A stretch of DNA of 64,000 nt. Source: SAR86 cluster bacterium AG-422-P06 (GTDB taxonomy: Bacteria; Pseudomonadota; Gammaproteobacteria; Magnimaribacterales; TMED112). The stretch covers positions 1,667-65,666 of the forward strand of contig QCMX01000001.1 in assembly GCA_003213455.1 (NCBI GenBank), written 5' to 3'. Within the stretch, counting starts at the first letter, position 1. Every line of letters begins with the position of its first letter. The notes beneath the pieces were generated by a model. The model had not been told where the DNA came from and made no database searches. It saw only the letters and a list, made by a program, of their open reading frames with translations. Shown here one piece after another: positions 3,784 to 23,267 of the stretch. Both the position numbers and the translations under genes were made by a program.

Positions 3784-4020
3784 TTAAACTTTAATGCCTT
3801 TCGATCTAATATCTTTAAGAACAGCATCTATGCCATTCTTATCAATTATTCGCATGCCTTTTGTAGAAAGAGTTAGTGTTACAAATTTGTTTTCAGATTC
3901 AACCCAAAATTTATGCTTATGCAAATTCGGTTTAAATAATCTTTTTACACGGTTTTTAGCATGGGAGACATGATTGCCTACCATTGCTTTTTTGCCTGTT
4001 ACTTGACACACGTTACTCAT
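3784..4020 (-). CDS. rpmB: 50S ribosomal protein L28
   Basis: 78 aa. [33 protein letters not shown] is canonical L28. No rpmG follows it. Confidence 0.95.
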
Positions 4021-4077
4021 AAGAACGGATGATAATAAAATAGTAATTGATTTTATGCAATAATTAATACCCTACTG

Positions 4078-4530
4078 ATGAAACTAAAATTTAAAATTCT
4101 TGATCAAAGAATAGGCAGTGAATTTGAAACTCCTAAATATCAAACAGCTGGTTCAGCTGGACTTGATTTATTGGCATGCATAGAGGACCAAATAGTACTT
4201 GAGCCTAATGAGTCTACGATCATTCCATCAGGCATATCAATTTTTATAGAAAACCCTGAATTTGCAGGTATTGTTATCCCTAGATCAGGTTTAGGGGCAA
4301 AAAAAGGGCTTGTTTGTGGAAATCTGCTTGGACTAATAGATTCAGATTATCAGGGACCATTAAGCATTTCATTGTGGAATAGATCTAATGAACCAATAAA
4401 GATTAATGCTGGTGAAAGGGTAGCTCAACTTGTAGTCATAAGAGTGGATCAGGTTGATCTAGAGCAAGTTGATGAATTTCCAGAGACAGATAGAGGTTCG
4501 AAAGGTTTCGGTAGTACTGGTATTATTTAG
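4078..4530 (+). CDS. dut: dUTP diphosphatase
   Basis: 150 aa. All dUTPase motifs are present: [22 protein letters not shown] and [10 protein letters not shown]. Confidence 0.95.
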
Positions 4531-4774
4531 CAGTTTTGCCAAATTTCTTTTCAAATCTTTGTACTCTTCCACCTGTATCAAGAATCTTCTGTTGCCCAGT
4601 ATAAAAAGGGTGAGAAGCAGATGAGGTTTCAACCGGATAATACGGATAAGTTTTTCCATCTTCCCATTCTTTCGTTTGAGACGTATTTAACGTTGAACGA
4701 ATAAGGAAATGTTTATCCACACTTGTATCGTGGAATAGAACATAACGAGATTCTGGATGTATTTCTTTTTTCAT
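4523..4774 (-). CDS. rpmE2: 50S ribosomal protein L31, type B (Cys-less, zinc-independent form)
   Basis: 83 aa. [28 protein letters not shown]...[10 protein letters not shown] matches the type B pattern (FHDTS, no CxxC). Confidence 0.9.
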
Positions 4775-4827
4775 AACTTCTAATTTGAATGTGAAATAAT
4801 ATCAAATAATTTTTCTATTACAATAAA

Positions 4828-6795
4828 TTGATGAATTTTGTTCAAGTAGCCATCCCATCGCCTTTACGTCAAACATTTACCTATATAAACAAATCTAGTT
4901 CTGACCTTTTAGGAAAGAGAGTTTTAGTAGAGTTTGGCAGAAGAAAGCTTGTAGGTGTTGTAATTAGTAATTCTGATATATCTGAGGGGGGATATAAATT
5001 AAAAAATATACTTGAGGTACTAGATGAAACTCCTTTGTTCTCAAAAGAAGCAATTAAAAAAATTACTTACATATCTGAATATTATATGCATCCCTTAGGT
5101 ATAGTTATTGAATCTTTTATTCCTACTTTCTTGAGAAAAGCTAAACATCAAAAAGATTTAGAAAAATACCATCAAGCAAAAGAAGAACTTATCTCAGCAA
5201 CAAATTTGCATAAATTAACCAATGATCAGGCTAATTGTTTGGATTCAATAAAATCTAAATCTGAAGGTGAAATTTTACTTTCAGGCATAACATCCTCGGG
5301 TAAAACAGAGGTTTACAAACACTTTATAAATTCACTTATTAATAAAGGGAAAAGTGCTCTTGTGCTGGTACCAGAAATTTTCCTTACTCCACAAATCTTT
5401 CATGACTTTCAATCAAGTTTTGGCGACAAAGTATTTTTAAATCATTCAGGCCTAACCTCCATCCAAAGAATAAAAGTATGGTTAGCTGCCCAGGATGACG
5501 CTCCTAAAATAATTATAGGTACTAGATCTTCAGTCTTTCTACCTATCAAAAATTTAGGAGGGGTAATATTTGATGAAGAACATGACCAGTCTTATAAGCA
5601 GCAAGAAGGTTTCAGGTACGAAGCAAAAGAAATTGCAAAAATCTTATATAAAGAAACTGCAAGAATTATTTATGCATCAGCAACACCATCTTTAACCAAT
5701 ATTAAGAAAGGAAAAGATGGTGAGATCGAAACATGCTCCCTGACTAAAAGAATATCTGATGCACCAATGCCAAATATATCTATACATGACGTTAGTAGAA
5801 AACAAACTTCAAGTGGGGTATCTGACCAATTAATTGAAAGAATTATTGAAAATGAAAAAGCTGGTTATCAAACCTTAGTTTTATTGAACAGAAGGGGCTA
5901 TGCTCCAGTCTTTATGTGTAATTCATGCGGATGGATTGCTAAAAGCAAATGTTGTGATACTTCCCTTGTCTTGCATCAGAATGTAAAAAGATTGAAATGT
6001 CACAGATGTGAAAGTGTTTGGGGAATACCTAATACTTGCCCAGAATGCGGATCTTCTGATTTTCTACATAAGGGGATTGGGACTCAACAAGTTGAAGAAG
6101 TGCTATCAGAGAAATTACCAAATTCTAATATAGTAAGAATTGATAGAGATACTGTTTCTGGTAAGAGCAGAAGAGAAGAAAGTTTTGCTATCTTCCAGGA
6201 TCCAACCCCAAAAATTTTTATTGGCACACAATTACTTGCAAAGGGCCATGATTTTAAAAATGTAAGTTTGGTAATTGTCTTAAATTTAGATTTTGGTTTA
6301 TTTGGTGCAGATATTCACATGCAAGAACAAACAGCTCAACTTATTGTTCAGGTTGCTGGTAGGGCTGGAAGAACAGGCATAGAAAATAACGTTTTTCTTC
6401 AAACAAGAGTAGCAGATCACCCATTATTCAATTTGATTAAAACAGGTAATTACCAAGAAATTGCAAAAGAATTACTTGAGGAAAGAAAAAAATTAGATTT
6501 AGCTCCATTTATAAATCTAGTCTATCTAAAAGCTGAAGATTCTAATCAATCTAAACTTAGAAAATTTCTAATTGAGTCAAAGAAAAGTTTGTCTCAGAAA
6601 GATCTTGAAGTTTATGGGCCTTTTGAAGGCCCAGTTACAAAGGTTGGCTATAAACATAGGATGTTTTGCATTATTCAGAGCAGTAAGAAAGAAAAAATGC
6701 TTCAAGTCTTATCAGATTTTGCCATAAAATCTGATACTAAGAAGAAAGAAATATCTAATTGGGTTTTAGATATTGATCCGATTAATGCAGTTTAA
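4828..6795 (+). CDS. priA: Primosomal replication-restart helicase PriA
   Basis: 655 aa. Walker A GITSSGKTEVY, DEEHD box and Cys-rich insertion CNSCGW...CHRC...CPECG. Confidence 0.9.
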   Translation: MMNFVQVAIPSPLRQTFTYINKSSSDLLGKRVLVEFGRRKLVGVVISNSDISEGGYKLKNILEVLDETPLFSKEAIKKITYISEYYMHPLGIVIESFIPTFLRKAKHQKDLEKYHQAKEELISATNLHKLTNDQANCLDSIKSKSEGEILLSGITSSGKTEVYKHFINSLINKGKSALVLVPEIFLTPQIFHDFQSSFGDKVFLNHSGLTSIQRIKVWLAAQDDAPKIIIGTRSSVFLPIKNLGGVIFDEEHDQSYKQQEGFRYEAKEIAKILYKETARIIYASATPSLTNIKKGKDGEIETCSLTKRISDAPMPNISIHDVSRKQTSSGVSDQLIERIIENEKAGYQTLVLLNRRGYAPVFMCNSCGWIAKSKCCDTSLVLHQNVKRLKCHRCESVWGIPNTCPECGSSDFLHKGIGTQQVEEVLSEKLPNSNIVRIDRDTVSGKSRREESFAIFQDPTPKIFIGTQLLAKGHDFKNVSLVIVLNLDFGLFGADIHMQEQTAQLIVQVAGRAGRTGIENNVFLQTRVADHPLFNLIKTGNYQEIAKELLEERKKLDLAPFINLVYLKAEDSNQSKLRKFLIESKKSLSQKDLEVYGPFEGPVTKVGYKHRMFCIIQSSKKEKMLQVLSDFAIKSDTKKKEISNWVLDIDPINAV

Positions 6796-17040: not shown

Positions 17041-17117
<77 letters not shown>

Positions 17118-17263
17118 CTCCCAGAAAAGGTTTAAATCCACGCAAAAATCATATAGATTTACTGATTGAGCATTTGACAGACATTCAAAAGCAAAAACAG
17201 AAGATAGAAGAAGATAAACTACGGTGATTAATGGTGGTAAAATTAGTTATTTACATATAAAAA

Positions 17264-18355
17264 ATGGCAAAAGACTTACACAACGCAAAAAAAAGCAAGC
17301 AAGATGATTTTTATACACAATTAACTGATATTGAAAAGGAATTAAAATATCACAAAGAAAGCCTTAAGAACAAAACAATAATTTGTAACTGTGATGATCC
17401 AAGAGTAAGCAATTTTTTTCATTATTTTTCCTTTAATTTTGAAAGCCTGCAATTGAAAAAGTTGATTTCTGTTTGTTACAAAAACCAATCAAAAGACTTA
17501 TTTACAAGAGAAGATAAAGATAAGGCAATTTACCTTATATATGAAGGTGACAAAAATAATGACAATATACCCAATGAGGATGAAATTGACGTTTTAAACC
17601 TAAACGGAGACGGAGATTTTAGAAGCCAAGAGAGTATAGAACTACTAAAACAGGCAGATATTGTTATTACAAATCCACCTTTTTCATTATTCAGAGAGTT
17701 CATAGCACAAATCATGCATTATGAGAAAAAGTTTTTAATTATTGGAAGTGTTAACGCAATAAACTATAAAGAAGTTTTTAAACTTATCATGGATAATAAA
17801 GTGTGGCTGGGAGCAAGCATTCACTCTGGAGATAGAGAATTTGGGGTACCTAAAGACCTAGTAACAAGAAGTAAAAGTTTAAGAATTGATGAAGAAGGTA
17901 ATAAATTTATAAGTGTTCCAGGTATAAGGTGGTTCACTAATCTTGAGTATGCTCAAAAATATGAAGATCTAATTCTCTATAAAAAATATAACCCTGAAGA
18001 GTATCCTAAATATGATAACTATGATGCTATAAATGTGAACGTTACAAAAGAAATACCCATGGATTACTCGGGCATAATGGGAGTCCCAATTACATTTTTA
18101 AGCAAATATAACCCTGATCAATTTGAAATTTTAGGCTTATCGCAAAAAGTTGGATATGGACTTGAGAGTACAAAGTTTTATGATGAATATGAAGAGACAA
18201 GACAGGATGGAACAAAAACAGGAAGTTCTGGTAAGAAGACAAATGGGAACCCGGTTATGAAAGGAAAACCTAAAAAAGGAAATTATTATGTCAAAGGTGA
18301 AGATATTGTTCATTCTTTGTATGGGAGAATTTTCATAAGAAATAAAAGGTTATGA
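17264..18355 (+). CDS. N6-adenine DNA methyltransferase, EcoRI-methylase family
   Basis: 363 aa. DDFYT (aa 14-18), IICNCDDPRVSNFF, the catalytic TNPPF (aa 136-140, nt 17669-17683), and the C-terminal GVPITFLSKYNPDQFEILG block typical of this family. Confidence 0.8.
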   Translation: MAKDLHNAKKSKQDDFYTQLTDIEKELKYHKESLKNKTIICNCDDPRVSNFFHYFSFNFESLQLKKLISVCYKNQSKDLFTREDKDKAIYLIYEGDKNNDNIPNEDEIDVLNLNGDGDFRSQESIELLKQADIVITNPPFSLFREFIAQIMHYEKKFLIIGSVNAINYKEVFKLIMDNKVWLGASIHSGDREFGVPKDLVTRSKSLRIDEEGNKFISVPGIRWFTNLEYAQKYEDLILYKKYNPEEYPKYDNYDAINVNVTKEIPMDYSGIMGVPITFLSKYNPDQFEILGLSQKVGYGLESTKFYDEYEETRQDGTKTGSSGKKTNGNPVMKGKPKKGNYYVKGEDIVHSLYGRIFIRNKRL

Positions 18356-19434
18356 AGATAGAAGAAATAAAGCTTTCGGTAAAAGATTTATCAGATGGTT
18401 ATGTAGATAAGCTTGAGGAAGGTGTATTAGGGTACTCTGGAAAATTAGACATTAGACCGCCATACCAAAGAGAATTTGTTTACAACGATAAGCAAAGAGA
18501 TGCGGTGATAGATACTATTTGGAATGTATACCCACTAAATGTGATGTATTGGGCAGTAAGAGAAGATGGTGGTTTTGAAATAATTGATGGCCAACAACGG
18601 ACAATATCTATTTGCCAATATATTAATGGCGACTTTTCATTTAATAAACGATACTTTTCTAATTTAGAGAATGATGAAAAAGATAAATTGTTAAATTACG
18701 AATTAACTATTTACTTGTGTAGTGGAACAGATAGCGAAAAGCTTGCGTGGTTTGAAACTATCAATATTGCAGGAGAAGAATTGTATGCTCAAGAGCTCAA
18801 AAATGCTGTTTATCATGGTTCATGGGTTTCAGATGCAAAAAAATATTTCAGTAAAAATGGTTGTCCAGCAAAAGGGTTAGGTGGTGACTACTTAACTGGT
18901 GCAGCGATAAGACAAGACTATCTTGAAACTGCAATTAAATGGATAAGTAAAAACAATATCAAAGACTATATGGCTGAAAATCAACATAACGCTAGTGCTG
19001 TTGATTTATGGAATTACTTTAGTTCGGTTATCTCATGGGTTGAAGCTACATTCAAGACCTACAGAAGAGAAATGAAAGGTATAGACTGGGCATTTCTTTA
19101 TGATGATTTTAAAGATAAAAACTTGAACCCAGATGAGCTTGAAATAGAAATAAAAAAACTTATGCAAGATGACGAAGTCCAGAAGAAAAAAGGTATATAT
19201 GAGTATGTTCTTCGTAGAGATGAGAAATTTTTAAAGCTAAGAACATTCACAGATCAGCAGAAAAGAGAAATGTATGAAAAGCAAGATGGTCTTTGCAATA
19301 TTCGCAAAAAACCATACCCAATAGAAGAGATGGAAGCTGACCATATAACTCCTTGGTCAGAGGGAGGTAGAACAATTGTTGAGAATGGTCAGATGATACA
19401 CAAAGAGGAAAATAGAAGAAAATCAAATAAATAG
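18352..19434 (+). CDS. DUF262 (GmrS/ParB-Srx-like, DGQQR) - HNH nuclease
   Basis: 360 aa. PPYQREFVY (aa 36-44), IIDGQQRT (aa 77-84, DGQQR at nt 18586-18600), and the C-terminal His-Me finger EADHITPWSEGGRTIVENGQMIHKEENRRK. Its start overlaps the methylase stop (ATGA, 18352-18355). Confidence 0.8.
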   Translation: MKIEEIKLSVKDLSDGYVDKLEEGVLGYSGKLDIRPPYQREFVYNDKQRDAVIDTIWNVYPLNVMYWAVREDGGFEIIDGQQRTISICQYINGDFSFNKRYFSNLENDEKDKLLNYELTIYLCSGTDSEKLAWFETINIAGEELYAQELKNAVYHGSWVSDAKKYFSKNGCPAKGLGGDYLTGAAIRQDYLETAIKWISKNNIKDYMAENQHNASAVDLWNYFSSVISWVEATFKTYRREMKGIDWAFLYDDFKDKNLNPDELEIEIKKLMQDDEVQKKKGIYEYVLRRDEKFLKLRTFTDQQKREMYEKQDGLCNIRKKPYPIEEMEADHITPWSEGGRTIVENGQMIHKEENRRKSNK

Positions 19435-19439
19435 ATTTA

Positions 19440-19481
19440 ATAAGGGTGAGGTCGCCGGTTCAAATCCAGCCAGACCCACCA
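19440..19481. repeat. Right 42-bp direct repeat (attR-like), a partial tRNA-Ile 3' copy
   Basis: Perfect copy of 17076-17117. It starts 5 nt after the nuclease stop codon and ends 12 nt before the next ATG. There is no 5' tRNA half upstream, so it is not a second tRNA gene. Confidence 0.9.
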
Positions 19482-19493
19482 TTTGAGATAAGT

Positions 19494-21050
19494 ATGAAAA
19501 ATTTTTCCTTAATTTTTATAAGCTTGCTAAGTCTTTTAGTCTCTCCTCATGATGGCTGGAAAGCAACCAAATTATCCGAAACAATTGCTCACACTCCGTC
19601 AGTGCTTCCAGACAGGGTTGTGCTCACATGGAACGATAATACGGCAACGACCCAGTCAGTCTCTTGGCGAACTGATACTTCTGTGATGAGTGGCTATGCC
19701 CAAATTGGTGTTGCAAATGCGAGTGGTAGATCTATGCAAACAAATGAATTTAAAGCTGTCACAACACTTTTTAGGAGTGATATTAACGATGCGCATTATC
19801 ATAATGTTACTTTTACTGATCTTGAGCCAAATACTATCTATGCTTACCGAGTTGGTGACGGTGAAAATTGGACAGAATATTATCACTTCAAAACTGCAAG
19901 CTTAGAACCTCAACCATTCAGTTTTATTTACTTTGGAGATGCTCAAAACGAAGTAAAAACCCACTGGTCTAGGGTCTTTAGGGAGGCATTTCGTGACGCT
20001 CCCAGAGCAGCATTTACACTGCATGCTGGTGATCTAGTCGATGATCATTATATGGATGCTCAGTGGGGTGAATGGCATCAAGCTCCTGACTGGGTTAATG
20101 GCACAATACCTGTAATAGCAACGCCAGGTAATCACGAATATTTAGACGACTCTCAACGCAAGCGAATATGGACAACTAAAGGTGGTAAAGAAGTAAAAAT
20201 AGATGTTGATGAGTATTCATTACATGCTCCGGGCGTATTCAAACTACTCATAGAAGATGAATTTGAGCAAAGTGGTTCTTTATTAGTACAGGAAAATGGT
20301 CAGATACAGTCGATTGATACTGGCATCGAAACAATTACTGGCTTTTCTCAAGCTGAATTAAAAGGCAAGATAATTTTAGGAGGAGGAGCACCTCTTTACG
20401 ATCGCCTTCAAAATCCAACAGGAATTCCAATTTTAAGTACACATTGGCGCCCACAATTTTCTTTCCCTATTCAAGACGTGCCCAAAGAAAGTTTAAAAGA
20501 AACGGTCTACTTTATTGATTACCAAGGCGTTAGATTTATCTCTTTAGATTCTAATACTGAGCTGGAAGCACAAGTTCCGTGGCTGGAGAAAACTTTGGAG
20601 CAAAATCCAAACCGATGGACAATTCTTACGTTTCATCATCCGATGTATTCGCCTGCTTCTGATCGAGATAATGTAGAGCAAAGAGACCTTTGGAAGCCAT
20701 TGTTTGATAAGTATAAAGTCGACTTAATCTTGAGTGGTCATGACCACACTTATTCCAGAACTGGTCTTGTTGATACGAAGAATTTAAAGAATGTGCCTAC
20801 TGGTTATCAGCAAGCTTATGATCCAGAGATTGGCACGGTTAATGTTGTCTCAGTCAGTGGTCCAAAGATGTATGAAATTACCAAAGGCCAATACGCTAAA
20901 ACTTTTGCTGAAAATAAACAGTTATATCAAATCATCGATATTGATGGTGATAGTCTTCGTTTCAGAGCTTTTACAGCAACTGGCGATTTACACGACGAGT
21001 TTCAACTTCAGAAAAGAACTGATAAACCTAATTTATTGATCGAAAAATAG
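19494..21050 (+). CDS. Secreted metallophosphoesterase with purple-acid-phosphatase-type N-terminal domain
   Basis: 518 aa from the internal ATG. Signal peptide MKNFSLIFISLLSLLVSP. PAP N-domain VLTWNDNTATTQSVSWRT. Metallophosphoesterase motifs GDAQN, GDLVDD, GNHEY, FHHPMYS and GHDHTYSR. The 19446 GTG start in the track would translate the att repeat. Confidence 0.8.
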   Translation: MKNFSLIFISLLSLLVSPHDGWKATKLSETIAHTPSVLPDRVVLTWNDNTATTQSVSWRTDTSVMSGYAQIGVANASGRSMQTNEFKAVTTLFRSDINDAHYHNVTFTDLEPNTIYAYRVGDGENWTEYYHFKTASLEPQPFSFIYFGDAQNEVKTHWSRVFREAFRDAPRAAFTLHAGDLVDDHYMDAQWGEWHQAPDWVNGTIPVIATPGNHEYLDDSQRKRIWTTKGGKEVKIDVDEYSLHAPGVFKLLIEDEFEQSGSLLVQENGQIQSIDTGIETITGFSQAELKGKIILGGGAPLYDRLQNPTGIPILSTHWRPQFSFPIQDVPKESLKETVYFIDYQGVRFISLDSNTELEAQVPWLEKTLEQNPNRWTILTFHHPMYSPASDRDNVEQRDLWKPLFDKYKVDLILSGHDHTYSRTGLVDTKNLKNVPTGYQQAYDPEIGTVNVVSVSGPKMYEITKGQYAKTFAENKQLYQIIDIDGDSLRFRAFTATGDLHDEFQLQKRTDKPNLLIEK

Positions 21051-21085
21051 ATTTCTTTCTTAAACCTTACTATTATTTTAAAAAG

Positions 21086-21165
21086 TGCAAAGGGGAGGCT
21101 TGGCCTGAGATCTTTAATAGGAACCCTTTGAACCTGAACCATATAGTGATGGCGGAGGAATTGCA
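21086..21165 (+). promoter_or_regulatory. TPP (THI-box) riboswitch, translational type
   Basis: tgcaa-AGGGGAGGCttgGCCTGAGA...ACCCTTTGAACCTGA-ACCAT-atagtg-ATGG-CGGAGGAA-ttgca. The conserved CUGAGA (21105-21110) and ACCCUUUGAACCUGA (21123-21137) are present. The P1 helix is tgcaa (21086-21090) paired with ttgca (21161-21165). The SD GGAGGA (21154-21159) and the A of the ATG lie inside the aptamer. Confidence 0.85.
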
Positions 21166-23267
21166 TGAAACACATCATAAAATATCTATATTTATTCGTT
21201 TTAATATTTGCAGCTGAAAACCTTTTTTCAGATGAAATTGAAGAAGTAATTGTTATAGCAGATTACAGAAATACAGAACTCAATAAAGAGGACTCAAGTA
21301 TTTTTGTTCTCGATGCAGAAGAGATTAAAGCTCAACCAATAAAGCATTTTGAAAATCTTTCATATTTAGTGCCCAATTTAAATTTTGCTGCTAGCGATTC
21401 TAGAGCAAGATACTTTCAGATTCGTGGCATTGGTGAAAGATCAGGGTATTTGGGTACCCCAAATACTTCGGTAGGTTTTCTGATTGACGATATTGATTAT
21501 TCTGGACAAGCAGGTATTGCTACTACCTTTGATGTTGAGCAAATAGAAATATTTAATGGTCCACAAGGTTCAAGAATTGGAGCCAATGCACTTGCAGGCC
21601 TTATATATATAAAAACAAAGGACCCCACAGATGAATTTGAAGGCACTTCAGAAATCACCTATGGAAATTACAACACACTGAGCACTGGCTTAGCATTTGG
21701 CGGCCCATTAACTGAAAACAAAAATATTAAATTCAGACTAGCTTTAAGAAAGGATGATACAGATGGATTTAGAGAAAATTTATATTTAAATAGATCTGAT
21801 ACCTCTAGAAAAGATGAGACAACAGCAAGGCTGAAAATCGATTTTGAGCTCGATAATAAAACCAATGCCAAAGTCTTATTGAGCCAAGTTGATATGGATG
21901 ATCCAGCAGATATCTGGACGATTGATGGCTCTTTGAATACGCTTTCCGATCGCCCTGGAATGGACTCTCAGAAGACTGACACATTTGGTTTAAAAGTGAT
22001 AAGAGCTAACAGGTACAACCAGTTTGAAAGTTTAACCAGCACAACTGATACAGACGTAGTTTTTAGTTATGACGCAGATTGGGGTAATACTGATTCACAC
22101 GCACCCTATACGTACGATTATTTTTCTGAGACTTTGAGAGCAAGAGAGTCTTTTAGCCAGGAATTTAGATTTGTTTCCAATGAGAAATATAAAGCAGAAC
22201 GTCTACCTTTTGATTGGGTTGTTGGTGTTTCATACCTAAGGCTTGATGAAACAAATGATCGTCAAGACGACGGTGTTTATGGAGATCCAAATGATCCATT
22301 TTCACCATACATAAGCTTAACCACCTCAAAGAGTGACTATAGCTCAACTAATATTTCTATTTTTGGAAATATTGATTACGAATTCTCTGCTTTTACGAAA
22401 TTAAGTGTAGGTTTAAGAATGGAGGATTGGTCAGCAAAATATTTTGATTCAAATAATGAAAGATTTAGTCCTTCGTACAGCATGATAGGTGGAAAAGTTT
22501 CACTTATACATTCTTTTAAGGATGGCATGAATATTTTTGCTAATTATGCCAAAGGCTATAAGCAAGGTGGCTTTAACGTTGGTCTTGGCTTATTAGATAG
22601 TGCAACTAGTTCTGATTTGGAATATGATCCTGAATTTTTGACTAATTATGAAATAGGTATGGATCTTTCAGTTTCAGACAAGACAGACCTAAGGATTGTT
22701 GGATTTTATTCAGAAAGAACAGATCAACAAGTCTTAATATCTACGCAAGTTGACCCTAATGATCCAAATACTTTTGTTTTCCTTACACAGAATGCAGCAG
22801 AGGGAGAAAACTATGGTCTTGAGTTAAATTTAAACTCAGATTTATCTGATGATTTAGATATTTTTGTAAATTTAGGCTTATTAAACACAGAAATAAAAAG
22901 TTGGAAATCAAGGCCTGAAATTCAAGGCAGAGAACAAGCTCATGCTCCCAGTAACTCTTATTCATTTGGCTTGAATTACAGACCAACACCTGTAACTTAT
23001 TTAAATTTTCATGCTACTGGAAAGAGTGGTTTTTATTATTCCGATTCTCACAACAATAAATCAGATTCATACATCTTATTAAATTCCAGTTTTGGCTATA
23101 ACTATGAAGATTGGGTAGTGGAGTTATGGGTAAGAAATTTATTTGATGAATACTATGCCACTAGAGGTTTTTATTTTGGTAATGAAGCTCCTGATTTTGC
23201 AGACACACTTTATGAAAGGCATGGTGATCCAAGGCATTTTGGGCTTTCAATAAGATATGATTTTTAA
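21165..23267 (+). CDS. TonB-dependent outer-membrane receptor (TPP-riboswitch controlled)
   Basis: 700 aa. Signal peptide, TonB-box-like EIEEVIVIA, plug motif IEIFNGPQGSRIGANALAG, and canonical C-terminal ...SIRYDF. Confidence 0.9.
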   Translation: MKHIIKYLYLFVLIFAAENLFSDEIEEVIVIADYRNTELNKEDSSIFVLDAEEIKAQPIKHFENLSYLVPNLNFAASDSRARYFQIRGIGERSGYLGTPNTSVGFLIDDIDYSGQAGIATTFDVEQIEIFNGPQGSRIGANALAGLIYIKTKDPTDEFEGTSEITYGNYNTLSTGLAFGGPLTENKNIKFRLALRKDDTDGFRENLYLNRSDTSRKDETTARLKIDFELDNKTNAKVLLSQVDMDDPADIWTIDGSLNTLSDRPGMDSQKTDTFGLKVIRANRYNQFESLTSTTDTDVVFSYDADWGNTDSHAPYTYDYFSETLRARESFSQEFRFVSNEKYKAERLPFDWVVGVSYLRLDETNDRQDDGVYGDPNDPFSPYISLTTSKSDYSSTNISIFGNIDYEFSAFTKLSVGLRMEDWSAKYFDSNNERFSPSYSMIGGKVSLIHSFKDGMNIFANYAKGYKQGGFNVGLGLLDSATSSDLEYDPEFLTNYEIGMDLSVSDKTDLRIVGFYSERTDQQVLISTQVDPNDPNTFVFLTQNAAEGENYGLELNLNSDLSDDLDIFVNLGLLNTEIKSWKSRPEIQGREQAHAPSNSYSFGLNYRPTPVTYLNFHATGKSGFYYSDSHNNKSDSYILLNSSFGYNYEDWVVELWVRNLFDEYYATRGFYFGNEAPDFADTLYERHGDPRHFGLSIRYDF

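Follow-up and report, generated by a model that had tools for sequence, protein, structure and literature searches.

A methylase-nuclease gene pair in a SAR86 tRNA-Ile islet, assigned to a widespread and already catalogued family of restriction-modification systems

The 64,000-nucleotide stretch of SAR86 cluster bacterium AG-422-P06 analysed here (contig QCMX01000001.1; the whole stretch is called the window) carries, between two copies of the 3' end of a tRNA-Ile gene, two overlapping genes that encode a predicted EcoRI-family N6-adenine DNA methyltransferase and a DUF262-HNH nuclease. On its profile matches the pair is a member of a very widespread, already catalogued restriction-modification (R-M) family and not a new defence architecture, an assignment that follows from a full-length match of the nuclease to the PADLOC profile PDLC03418, a match of the methylase to the PADLOC profile MTase_II, and the example of the genetically studied system BanLI. 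We consider it highly probable that the two genes form a methylation-protected R-M system, of the kind filed as Type II by both REBASE and PADLOC, with BanLI as its studied example. A preliminary description of the locus, made from the DNA letters, had taken the pair to be uncharacterised and its architecture to be new. This is not upheld, given the full-length PADLOC Type II match, a REBASE Type II listing of a DUF262 gene and the genetics of BanLI. The accompanying statement that no experimentally characterised example is known fails in one part, since BanLI has been tested genetically, and stands in another, as no biochemical or structural study was found in the literature. Characterised close homologues, entered in REBASE as an ordinary Type II or Type IV system, had been named as evidence against novelty, and such evidence was largely found, in the form of the PADLOC model, the REBASE listing (via PMC13091528) and BanLI, the last being linked to the window pair by means other than alignment.

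The two proteins and their linkage

The methylase aligns with the Pfam EcoRI_methylase family (PF13651) over residues 5-361 (profile positions 2-345 of 345, E 6.8e-134), scoring 447 bits against a curated cut-off of 26.4, and with the PADLOC profile MTase_II (PDLC03297) over residues 1-307 (E 3.7e-117). Its translation contains DDFYT at aa 14-18 and the catalytic TNPPF at aa 136-140 (nt 17669-17683), the two motifs on which the preliminary description had founded its assignment. As judged from these matches, the open reading frame (ORF) at 17264-18355 is a full-length EcoRI-family N6-adenine DNA methyltransferase, in agreement with that assignment. The resemblance to the EcoRI R-M system is confined to this component, which shares the Pfam family and the NPPF catalytic motif of M.EcoRI; R.EcoRI, a PD-(D/E)XK enzyme, has no relation to the DUF262-HNH nuclease, and nothing points to GAATTC as the site of the window pair (21 occurrences observed in the window, 26 expected).

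The nuclease matches the PADLOC REase_II profile PDLC03418, named 'Type II restriction enzyme', from end to end (residues 1-360, profile positions 1-372 of 372, E 2.9e-123). The score of 410 bits compares with 78 for NsnA and 36 for PD-T4-2_A, both of which share the DUF262 part only. The same profile is matched by all 46 diverse relatives examined (best E 1e-150), and the PADLOC models for GmrSD, BrxU and SspE are absent from the matches of the window nuclease and of these relatives. Both window proteins thereby match the PADLOC/DefenseFinder Type II profiles at E below 1e-115, although these are profiles only and carry no recognition sequence or mechanism. The family is large. A word-indexed search returned more than 8000 relatives of the nuclease at E 1e-5, the best 120 of which are nearly all 360-362 aa long with 65-100% identity, and a library clustered at 50% identity holds 4926 representatives at E<=1e-3, of which 437 reach E<=1e-30, the full-length ones being mostly 360-410 aa.

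The AlphaFold2 model of the nuclease (pLDDT 92.3, pTM 0.77), built on a 46-sequence alignment after an earlier model from a shallow alignment had proved poor (pLDDT 66), has three parts, an N-terminal domain, a helical middle and the HNH domain (Table 1). Pfam places PF03235 GmrSD_N (DUF262) at aa 34-154 (E 1.6e-15) and PF01844 HNH at aa 315-360 (E 8.8e-7), each over its curated cut-off, with no match to DUF1524 at E<=0.1; the C-terminus is PF01844 HNH. The motifs RPPYQREF (aa 35-42) and DGQQR (aa 79-83, nt 18586-18600) lie in the first domain, and EADHITPW, followed by N345 and N354, in the last. A DUF262 protein with a C-terminal His-Me finger, as first described, is thus what the profiles and motifs recover. 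In an alignment of 46 relatives with 34-72% identity to the window nuclease, residues Q39, R40, D79, G80, Q82, R83 and N345 are invariant, and D330, H331 and N354 are conserved in at least 90%. The DGQQR residues of BrxU position the gamma-phosphate and are required for nucleoside triphosphate (NTP) hydrolysis, which precedes cleavage (PMC8565348). Because both sets of motifs are conserved, and because DGQQR is needed for NTP hydrolysis by BrxU, the putative NTPase-type site and the nuclease site are both under selection in the nuclease family.

Sequence and profile searches found no solved structure beyond the HNH part, for which the Gme HNH structure 4h9d is the best structure profile match (E 1e-6), and a 36-residue stretch of BrxU, whose sequence similarity to the nuclease is limited to residues 36-71 (E 0.03). 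A Foldseek search of the Protein Data Bank with the nuclease model likewise gave no full-length structural analogue at E<=1e-3. The best neighbours are Noc, ParB, the N-domain of pNOB8 ParB, BrxU, Gme HNH, Cas9 HNH and McrA; the top matches of the N-terminal part (7ol9, 5k5d and 6sdk) have probabilities of 0.90-0.97, but E values of 3.5e-3 to 1.5e-2 and TM-scores of 0.2-0.36. The middle domain (aa 126-299) matched no family and no solved structure in Pfam and structure profile searches, and is likely to be a DNA-recognition module that reads the site.

In the window the two genes run in the same direction, as ORFs of 363 and 360 aa that agree with those previously described, and direct reading of 18331-18370 (...aaaaggttATGAagata...) confirms the ATGA overlap, with the ATG of the nuclease at 18352-18354 and the TGA of the methylase at 18353-18355. 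This close association is a property of the family. We searched with the window methylase 86 loci, made up of 80 distinct genomes represented by one-genome-per-species contigs (L007-L086) and six places with one identical Brevinematales protein (L001-L006). An EcoRI-family methylase adjoins the nuclease in 84 of the 86, and the contigs of the other two (L039 and L064) start with the nuclease itself. The co-occurrence that the preliminary description had proposed to look for is borne out. In loci where the alignment covers the C-terminus of the methylase, 0-23 nt lie between it and the start of the nuclease, and a single locus (L059) has the methylase downstream of the nuclease. The linkage is essentially obligate, and co-occurrence of such completeness favours a cognate R-M pair over a Type IV enzyme that happens to lie beside an unrelated orphan methylase. 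The methylase and nuclease genes stand about 1.3 kb apart in several loci of rumen Bacteroidales; in the one inspected (L014) the gap holds a gene at 5021-5950 for a helix-turn-helix and Fic-domain protein with the motif HPFxDGNGRxGR.

The range of hosts is wide. The pair occurs, with an identity of about 60% throughout, in Bacteroidota, Spirochaetota, Acidobacteriota, Patescibacteria, Pelagibacteraceae, Neisseria perflava and two Thaumarchaeota, and also on plasmids of at least 10 genera, including Aeromonas, Sulfitobacter, Mammaliicoccus, Gordonia, Ruania, Variovorax, Ligilactobacillus and Lactiplantibacillus. A Ligilactobacillus plasmid of only 7.5 kb (L091) carries it with a 1-nt overlap, and the Flavobacterium siphophage vB_FspS_laban6-1 carries a complete pair with a 4-nt overlap beside its tape-measure gene (L090, 1778-4140). 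Partial forms are also seen. The mycobacteriophages Hami1 and Marchy retain no more of the nuclease than 43 aa of its N-terminus, next to a gene for a methyltransferase. In L088 an ORF at 4001-5461 (P0210, 486 aa) fuses a whole methylase in frame to the last ~120 residues of the nuclease, its HNH part, and lacks the DUF262 domain as well as most of the helical domain; this is probably a decayed restriction gene that has left an orphan methylase.

BanLI and the logic of the pair

The lead to BanLI came from a Bifidobacterium paper of 2026, according to which REBASE lists for B. animalis subsp. lactis a Type II restriction endonuclease (REase) of site RTCAGG, whose gene is annotated 'DUF262 domain-containing protein' (PMC13091528). 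It is the system studied by O'Connell Motherway et al. 2014, in which M.BanLI, a 41.7-kDa protein that the authors aligned with M.EcoRI, produces RTC(m6A)GG on one strand in E. coli, and in which the gene that follows encodes a 43.5-kDa REase (PMC3990576). The cloned pair reduces plating of P1vir on E. coli about 10-fold, and pre-methylation by M.BanLI raises transformation 1.8-fold (PMC3990576); as pre-methylation raises transformation, methylation by M.BanLI must be protective. BanLI and the window pair agree in having two genes, an M.EcoRI-like N6-adenine methylase (41.7 and 42.3 kDa, respectively) directly followed by a gene that RefSeq annotates, in BanLI, as DUF262 (43.5 and 42.4 kDa). 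They differ in that BanLI has a known site, RTCAGG, marked on one strand, and is chromosomal with an upstream integration event and no tRNA islet. By analogy with BanLI, we infer that methylation protects in the window pair also. No later biochemical work on BanLI was found in the literature. Methylase-coupled DUF262-HNH enzymes likewise yielded no study of their biochemistry or structure, neither a solved structure nor work in vitro. ClaI (41.6 kDa) had been entertained as a characterised prototype; this was a guess without support and was dropped. Type II enzymes of the HNH kind such as KpnI, Hpy99I, PacI and SphI also combine a beta-beta-alpha-metal nuclease with a separate methylase, but none of those listed in the reviews PMC4081073 and PMC2441816 is described there as having a ParB/Srx NTPase-type domain.

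In the R-M system that we propose, the EcoRI-family enzyme would place an N6-methyl group on adenine in a short, specific site of the host DNA, the nuclease, translated by coupling to the methylase gene, would be made only where the methylase is made, and the HNH domain would cut DNA that lacks the mark. The helical middle domain would likely be the site reader, and the DUF262 domain, which keeps the nucleotide motifs of BrxU, would most likely gate cleavage through an NTP-driven conformational or oligomeric change. Host marking, translational coupling and the cutting of unmarked DNA are the steps that the linkage and, by analogy, the BanLI genetics support. Methylation-protected logic was one of the two possibilities raised at the outset, and it is favoured by the near-complete linkage together with the protection seen in BanLI.

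The other possibility raised was that of a self-marking methylase combined with a Type IV enzyme. The N-terminal domain belongs to a Pfam family named after GmrSD, and the biochemically studied DUF262 nucleases that were found (GmrSD, BrxU and SspE) all sense modified DNA. These enzymes share with the window nuclease an N-terminal ParB/Srx domain with DGQQR followed by a C-terminal His-Me finger, and BrxU is among its best structural neighbours. A modification-dependent, GmrSD-like nuclease, with the methylase an unrelated or 'self-marking' neighbour, is nevertheless disfavoured, and we regard it as extremely improbable. GmrSD, BrxU and SspE are at least 1.6 times longer (the term 'half-size' used for the window nuclease is a fair one, at 360 aa and 42.4 kDa compared with 587 aa and 67.9 kDa for BrxU), their nuclease domain is DUF1524 and not PF01844, and they attack modified DNA with no cognate methylase, whereas the window family is always methylase-paired. 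At every locus that allows a test, in different phyla, on plasmids and in a phage, the nuclease is linked to this one methylase family, and the two genes usually abut or overlap. The enzyme would moreover have to ignore the mark of its partner, the conserved coupling would be left unexplained, and the partner methylation in BanLI raises transformation instead of lowering it.

Several points weigh against a methylation-protected Type II system as the explanation. The Type II label comes in part from the PADLOC REase_II profile, whose seed sequences we presume to derive from REBASE; Oliveira et al. 2014 collected Type II REases by BLASTP and not by hidden Markov models. Membership of the window pair and BanLI in one family is inferred from domain annotation, gene order and sizes, not from an alignment, the N-termini that can be derived from the BanLI primers being a few uninformative codons and the primer being absent from the fetched loci. 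A protein search begun with a homologue from Bifidobacteriaceae gave close relatives without names and nothing else. Restriction by BanLI is weak, and its authors thought the system possibly incomplete (PMC3990576). A search for the recognition site among 4-, 5- and 6-mers that are under-represented in the window and in 830 kb of DNA from the host gave generic palindrome avoidance only, with no notable depletion of RTCAGG, GAATTC or ATCGAT. If NTP is required, the enzyme would misfit the textbook Type II definition, and the invariant DGQQR makes the 'no NTP' clause of that definition doubtful for this family. Lastly, the HNH zinc site CxxC...CxxC (aa 315-353) has three of its four cysteines replaced in the clade of the window nuclease, with only C315 invariant.

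The cysteine loss, together with the failure to find a promoter-like site between tRNA-Ile and the methylase ATG, could be taken to mean that the window copy is an inactive relic. We think this very unlikely. Both ORFs are full-length and intact, the nuclease keeps its catalytic and NTP-motif residues, and the flanking repeats are still perfect. The same loss of zinc ligands, with the catalytic D-H...N...N kept, arose independently in several other full-length clades, and because these share it we do not read it as decay; among relatives of full length the cysteine-poor state is common to P0004, P0009 and P0104 (67-72% identity).

The one-strand mark of BanLI raises a further mechanism, which would be a variant of the R-M explanation and not its opposite. 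Conventional Type IIS systems need both strands to be marked, and Type III enzymes cope with one-strand marking by requiring two unmethylated sites. M.BanLI, the only methylase of its system, marks a single strand of the asymmetric RTCAGG. In a comparable, Type III-like logic the pair would mark one strand of an asymmetric site and an NTP switch or sliding clamp formed by DUF262 would link enzymes at two unmethylated sites, sparing freshly replicated host DNA. Such a scheme is consistent with the invariance of the NTP-motif residues across the family, with the need of BrxU for NTP binding and hydrolysis before it cuts, and with the CTP-dependent clamps Noc and ParB being the best Foldseek neighbours of the N-domain and the helices that follow it; weak restriction by BanLI would also fit a requirement for two sites. 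The structural matches, however, combine their high probabilities with weak E values and low TM-scores, the CTP-binding signature of ParB is replaced by DGQQR in the nuclease, and ParB and Noc have no nuclease domain and serve other biology. The site of the window methylase could be palindromic, as is that of M.EcoRI. The authors of the BanLI study ascribed its one-strand marking to loss of a second methylase gene (PMC3990576). We put Type III-like logic forward as a tentative idea that is more doubtful than probable.

The tRNA islet and movement of the cassette

The methylase and nuclease are the sole genes of an islet of 2364 bp, measured from repeat start to repeat start, which agrees with their earlier description as the only cargo of a tRNA-Ile islet. 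It is bounded by perfect 42-nt copies of the tRNA-Ile 3' end, for which 100 shuffles gave no comparable match, and the space between the repeats holds no integrase gene, only the two R-M ORFs. The features are collected in Table 1.

Table 1. Features of the islet and of the encoded proteins, in window coordinates
Feature	Position	Strand	Basis and remarks
tRNA-Ile (anticodon GAT), integration target; 3' part forms the left repeat	17041..17117	+	ARAGORN; Rfam tRNA, 70 bits
Left copy of perfect 42-nt direct repeat (attL-like)	17076..17117	+	Repeat family D1, 100% identity; 0 chance matches in shuffles
Left arm of islet, non-coding	17118..17263	+	No homology to arms of related islet L092; holds GAAGATAGAAGAA
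Methylase gene, 363 aa, 42.3 kDa	17264..18355	+	PF13651; PADLOC MTase_II PDLC03297
ATGA overlap of methylase stop and nuclease start (translational coupling)	18352..18355	+	Direct read
Restriction endonuclease gene, 360 aa, 42.4 kDa; DUF262, helical domain and HNH	18352..19434	+	PADLOC REase_II PDLC03418; Pfam; AlphaFold2
N-terminal ParB/Srx-type (DUF262) domain, aa 1-125, alpha/beta	18352..18726	+	PF03235; invariant Q39-R40 and D79-G80-x-Q82-R83; Foldseek
All-helical middle domain, aa 126-299	18727..19248	+	Secondary structure of model
C-terminal HNH (His-Me finger) domain, beta-beta-alpha, aa 300-360; D330-H331, N345, N354	19249..19434	+	PF01844; 4h9d; residue counts
Right copy of 42-nt repeat (attR-like), 5 nt past nuclease stop	19440..19481	+	Repeat search; shuffles

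Comparable islets occur at other tRNA genes in other hosts. In a Pyrinomonadaceae contig (L028, 4735-7424) the pair lies between perfect 51-nt repeats of a tRNA-Asp 3' end, 2639 bp apart, and in a second locus (L092, 1294-3863) the repeats are perfect copies of 45 nt of tRNA-Ala(GGC), set 2525 bp apart, and enclose a pair 89.3% identical in DNA to window positions 17249-19433. The window and L092 cease to be homologous at the borders of the gene pair, the blastn alignment beginning only at 17249, and the arms of the two islets are unrelated. The L092 islet is found beside a different tRNA-Ala variant in a further locus (L093). None of the three islets of the window, L028 and L092, which measure 2.4-2.6 kb and belong to unrelated hosts, contains an integrase. 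Exact flanking repeats of 19-55 nt surround the pair in 11 of 78 distinct related loci that hold both genes, and many of the metagenome contigs that carry it have a length of no more than 2.2-2.5 kb. One of these, the Logan contig SRR7041131_177 (L087; 2363 bp), is identical to window positions 17089-19451 and breaks within both repeat copies. Such short contigs fit repeat-bounded or polymorphic insertions. The Logan contig has no terminal overlap and so gives no evidence of a circular form of the islet, and the metagenome contigs contained no empty tRNA-Ile site for it. In sum the pair behaves as a self-contained mobile cassette, and the perfect repeats around the window copy suggest a recent insertion. 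Both arms of L092 also carry tandem GG(A/G)CACAAG motifs, which could be arm sites for a recombinase.

R-M genes bracketed by direct repeats of their target are found in integrase-less, att-flanked elements of the CIME type and in 'insertion with long target duplication'. The window islet resembles these in placing R-M genes between target repeats, here of a tRNA 3' end; it differs in being only 2.4 kb long with the R-M pair as sole cargo, in the use of different tRNAs in different hosts, and in that no cognate integrase was identified.

This mobility might be the purpose of the pair, in that a selfish addiction or mobility module would stabilise the islet by post-segregational killing, or aid its spread, and not defend against phage. 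The islets of the three unrelated hosts, integrase-less, bounded by tRNA repeats of 42-51 nt and devoted to this pair alone, point in that direction, as do the homology of the window and L092 islets that stops exactly at the gene-pair borders, the 11 loci with exact repeats, the many short metagenome contigs and the identity of about 60% that the pair retains across phyla and into archaea. A selfish role is, however, compatible with defence and does not exclude it, BanLI restricts phage P1, and neither cutting of tRNA targets by the HNH enzyme nor an excised circle or empty site was found. We judge a module that is selfish rather than defensive to be unlikely. The methylation-protected R-M system, set out above, can be extended with both the mechanism and the movement of the cassette: BanLI-like DUF262-HNH enzymes would be NTP-gated, with a ParB/Srx switch, possibly a clamp, reading an asymmetric site marked on one strand, and would constitute a Type III-like class of two-gene R-M systems, whose cassettes spread in integrase-less tRNA islets mobilised in trans. 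This combined proposal is speculative, a little more so than the Type III-like logic on its own.

Three further observations concern the sequence in and around the islet. The purine-rich element GAAGATAGAAGAA... of the left arm (17200-17221) recurs at the start of the nuclease gene (18354-18375) with a 13-nt exact match (repeat family D2), and the 3' end of that gene has a weaker copy (19408-19429); the copies may be due to chance in A/G-rich sequence, or may represent a regulatory or duplicated element. Downstream, the listed GTG start of a 534-aa metallophosphatase-like ORF (19446-21050) falls within the right tRNA repeat, and its true start is probably an ATG near 19495 (MKNFSLIFISLL..., with a signal-peptide-like N-terminus). 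A thiamine pyrophosphate (TPP) riboswitch at 21081-21177 (Rfam RF00059, 59.8 bits) stands just upstream of, and slightly overlaps, an ORF for a TonB-dependent receptor (21165-23267); the window contains no rRNA.

Implications for the family

In annotation the pair is better called a Type II-class R-M system than a 'DUF262 protein + methylase'. Of the R-M cassettes seen here, those of the family to which it is assigned are among the most widely transferred, at about 60% identity from Bacteroidota to Thaumarchaeota and present on plasmids and in a phage. The family combines an NTPase-type ParB/Srx domain, otherwise studied only in modification-dependent enzymes, with a methylation-sensitive nuclease, and the interest that remains lies in the enzymology of the family, above all the role of its invariant ParB/Srx NTPase-type motifs, and in the origin of the miniature tRNA islets. 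These tiny, integrase-less islets offer a clean system for how R-M cassettes move. One member worked out would show whether the label 'Type II' fits the family, and would explain the one-strand methylation of BanLI.

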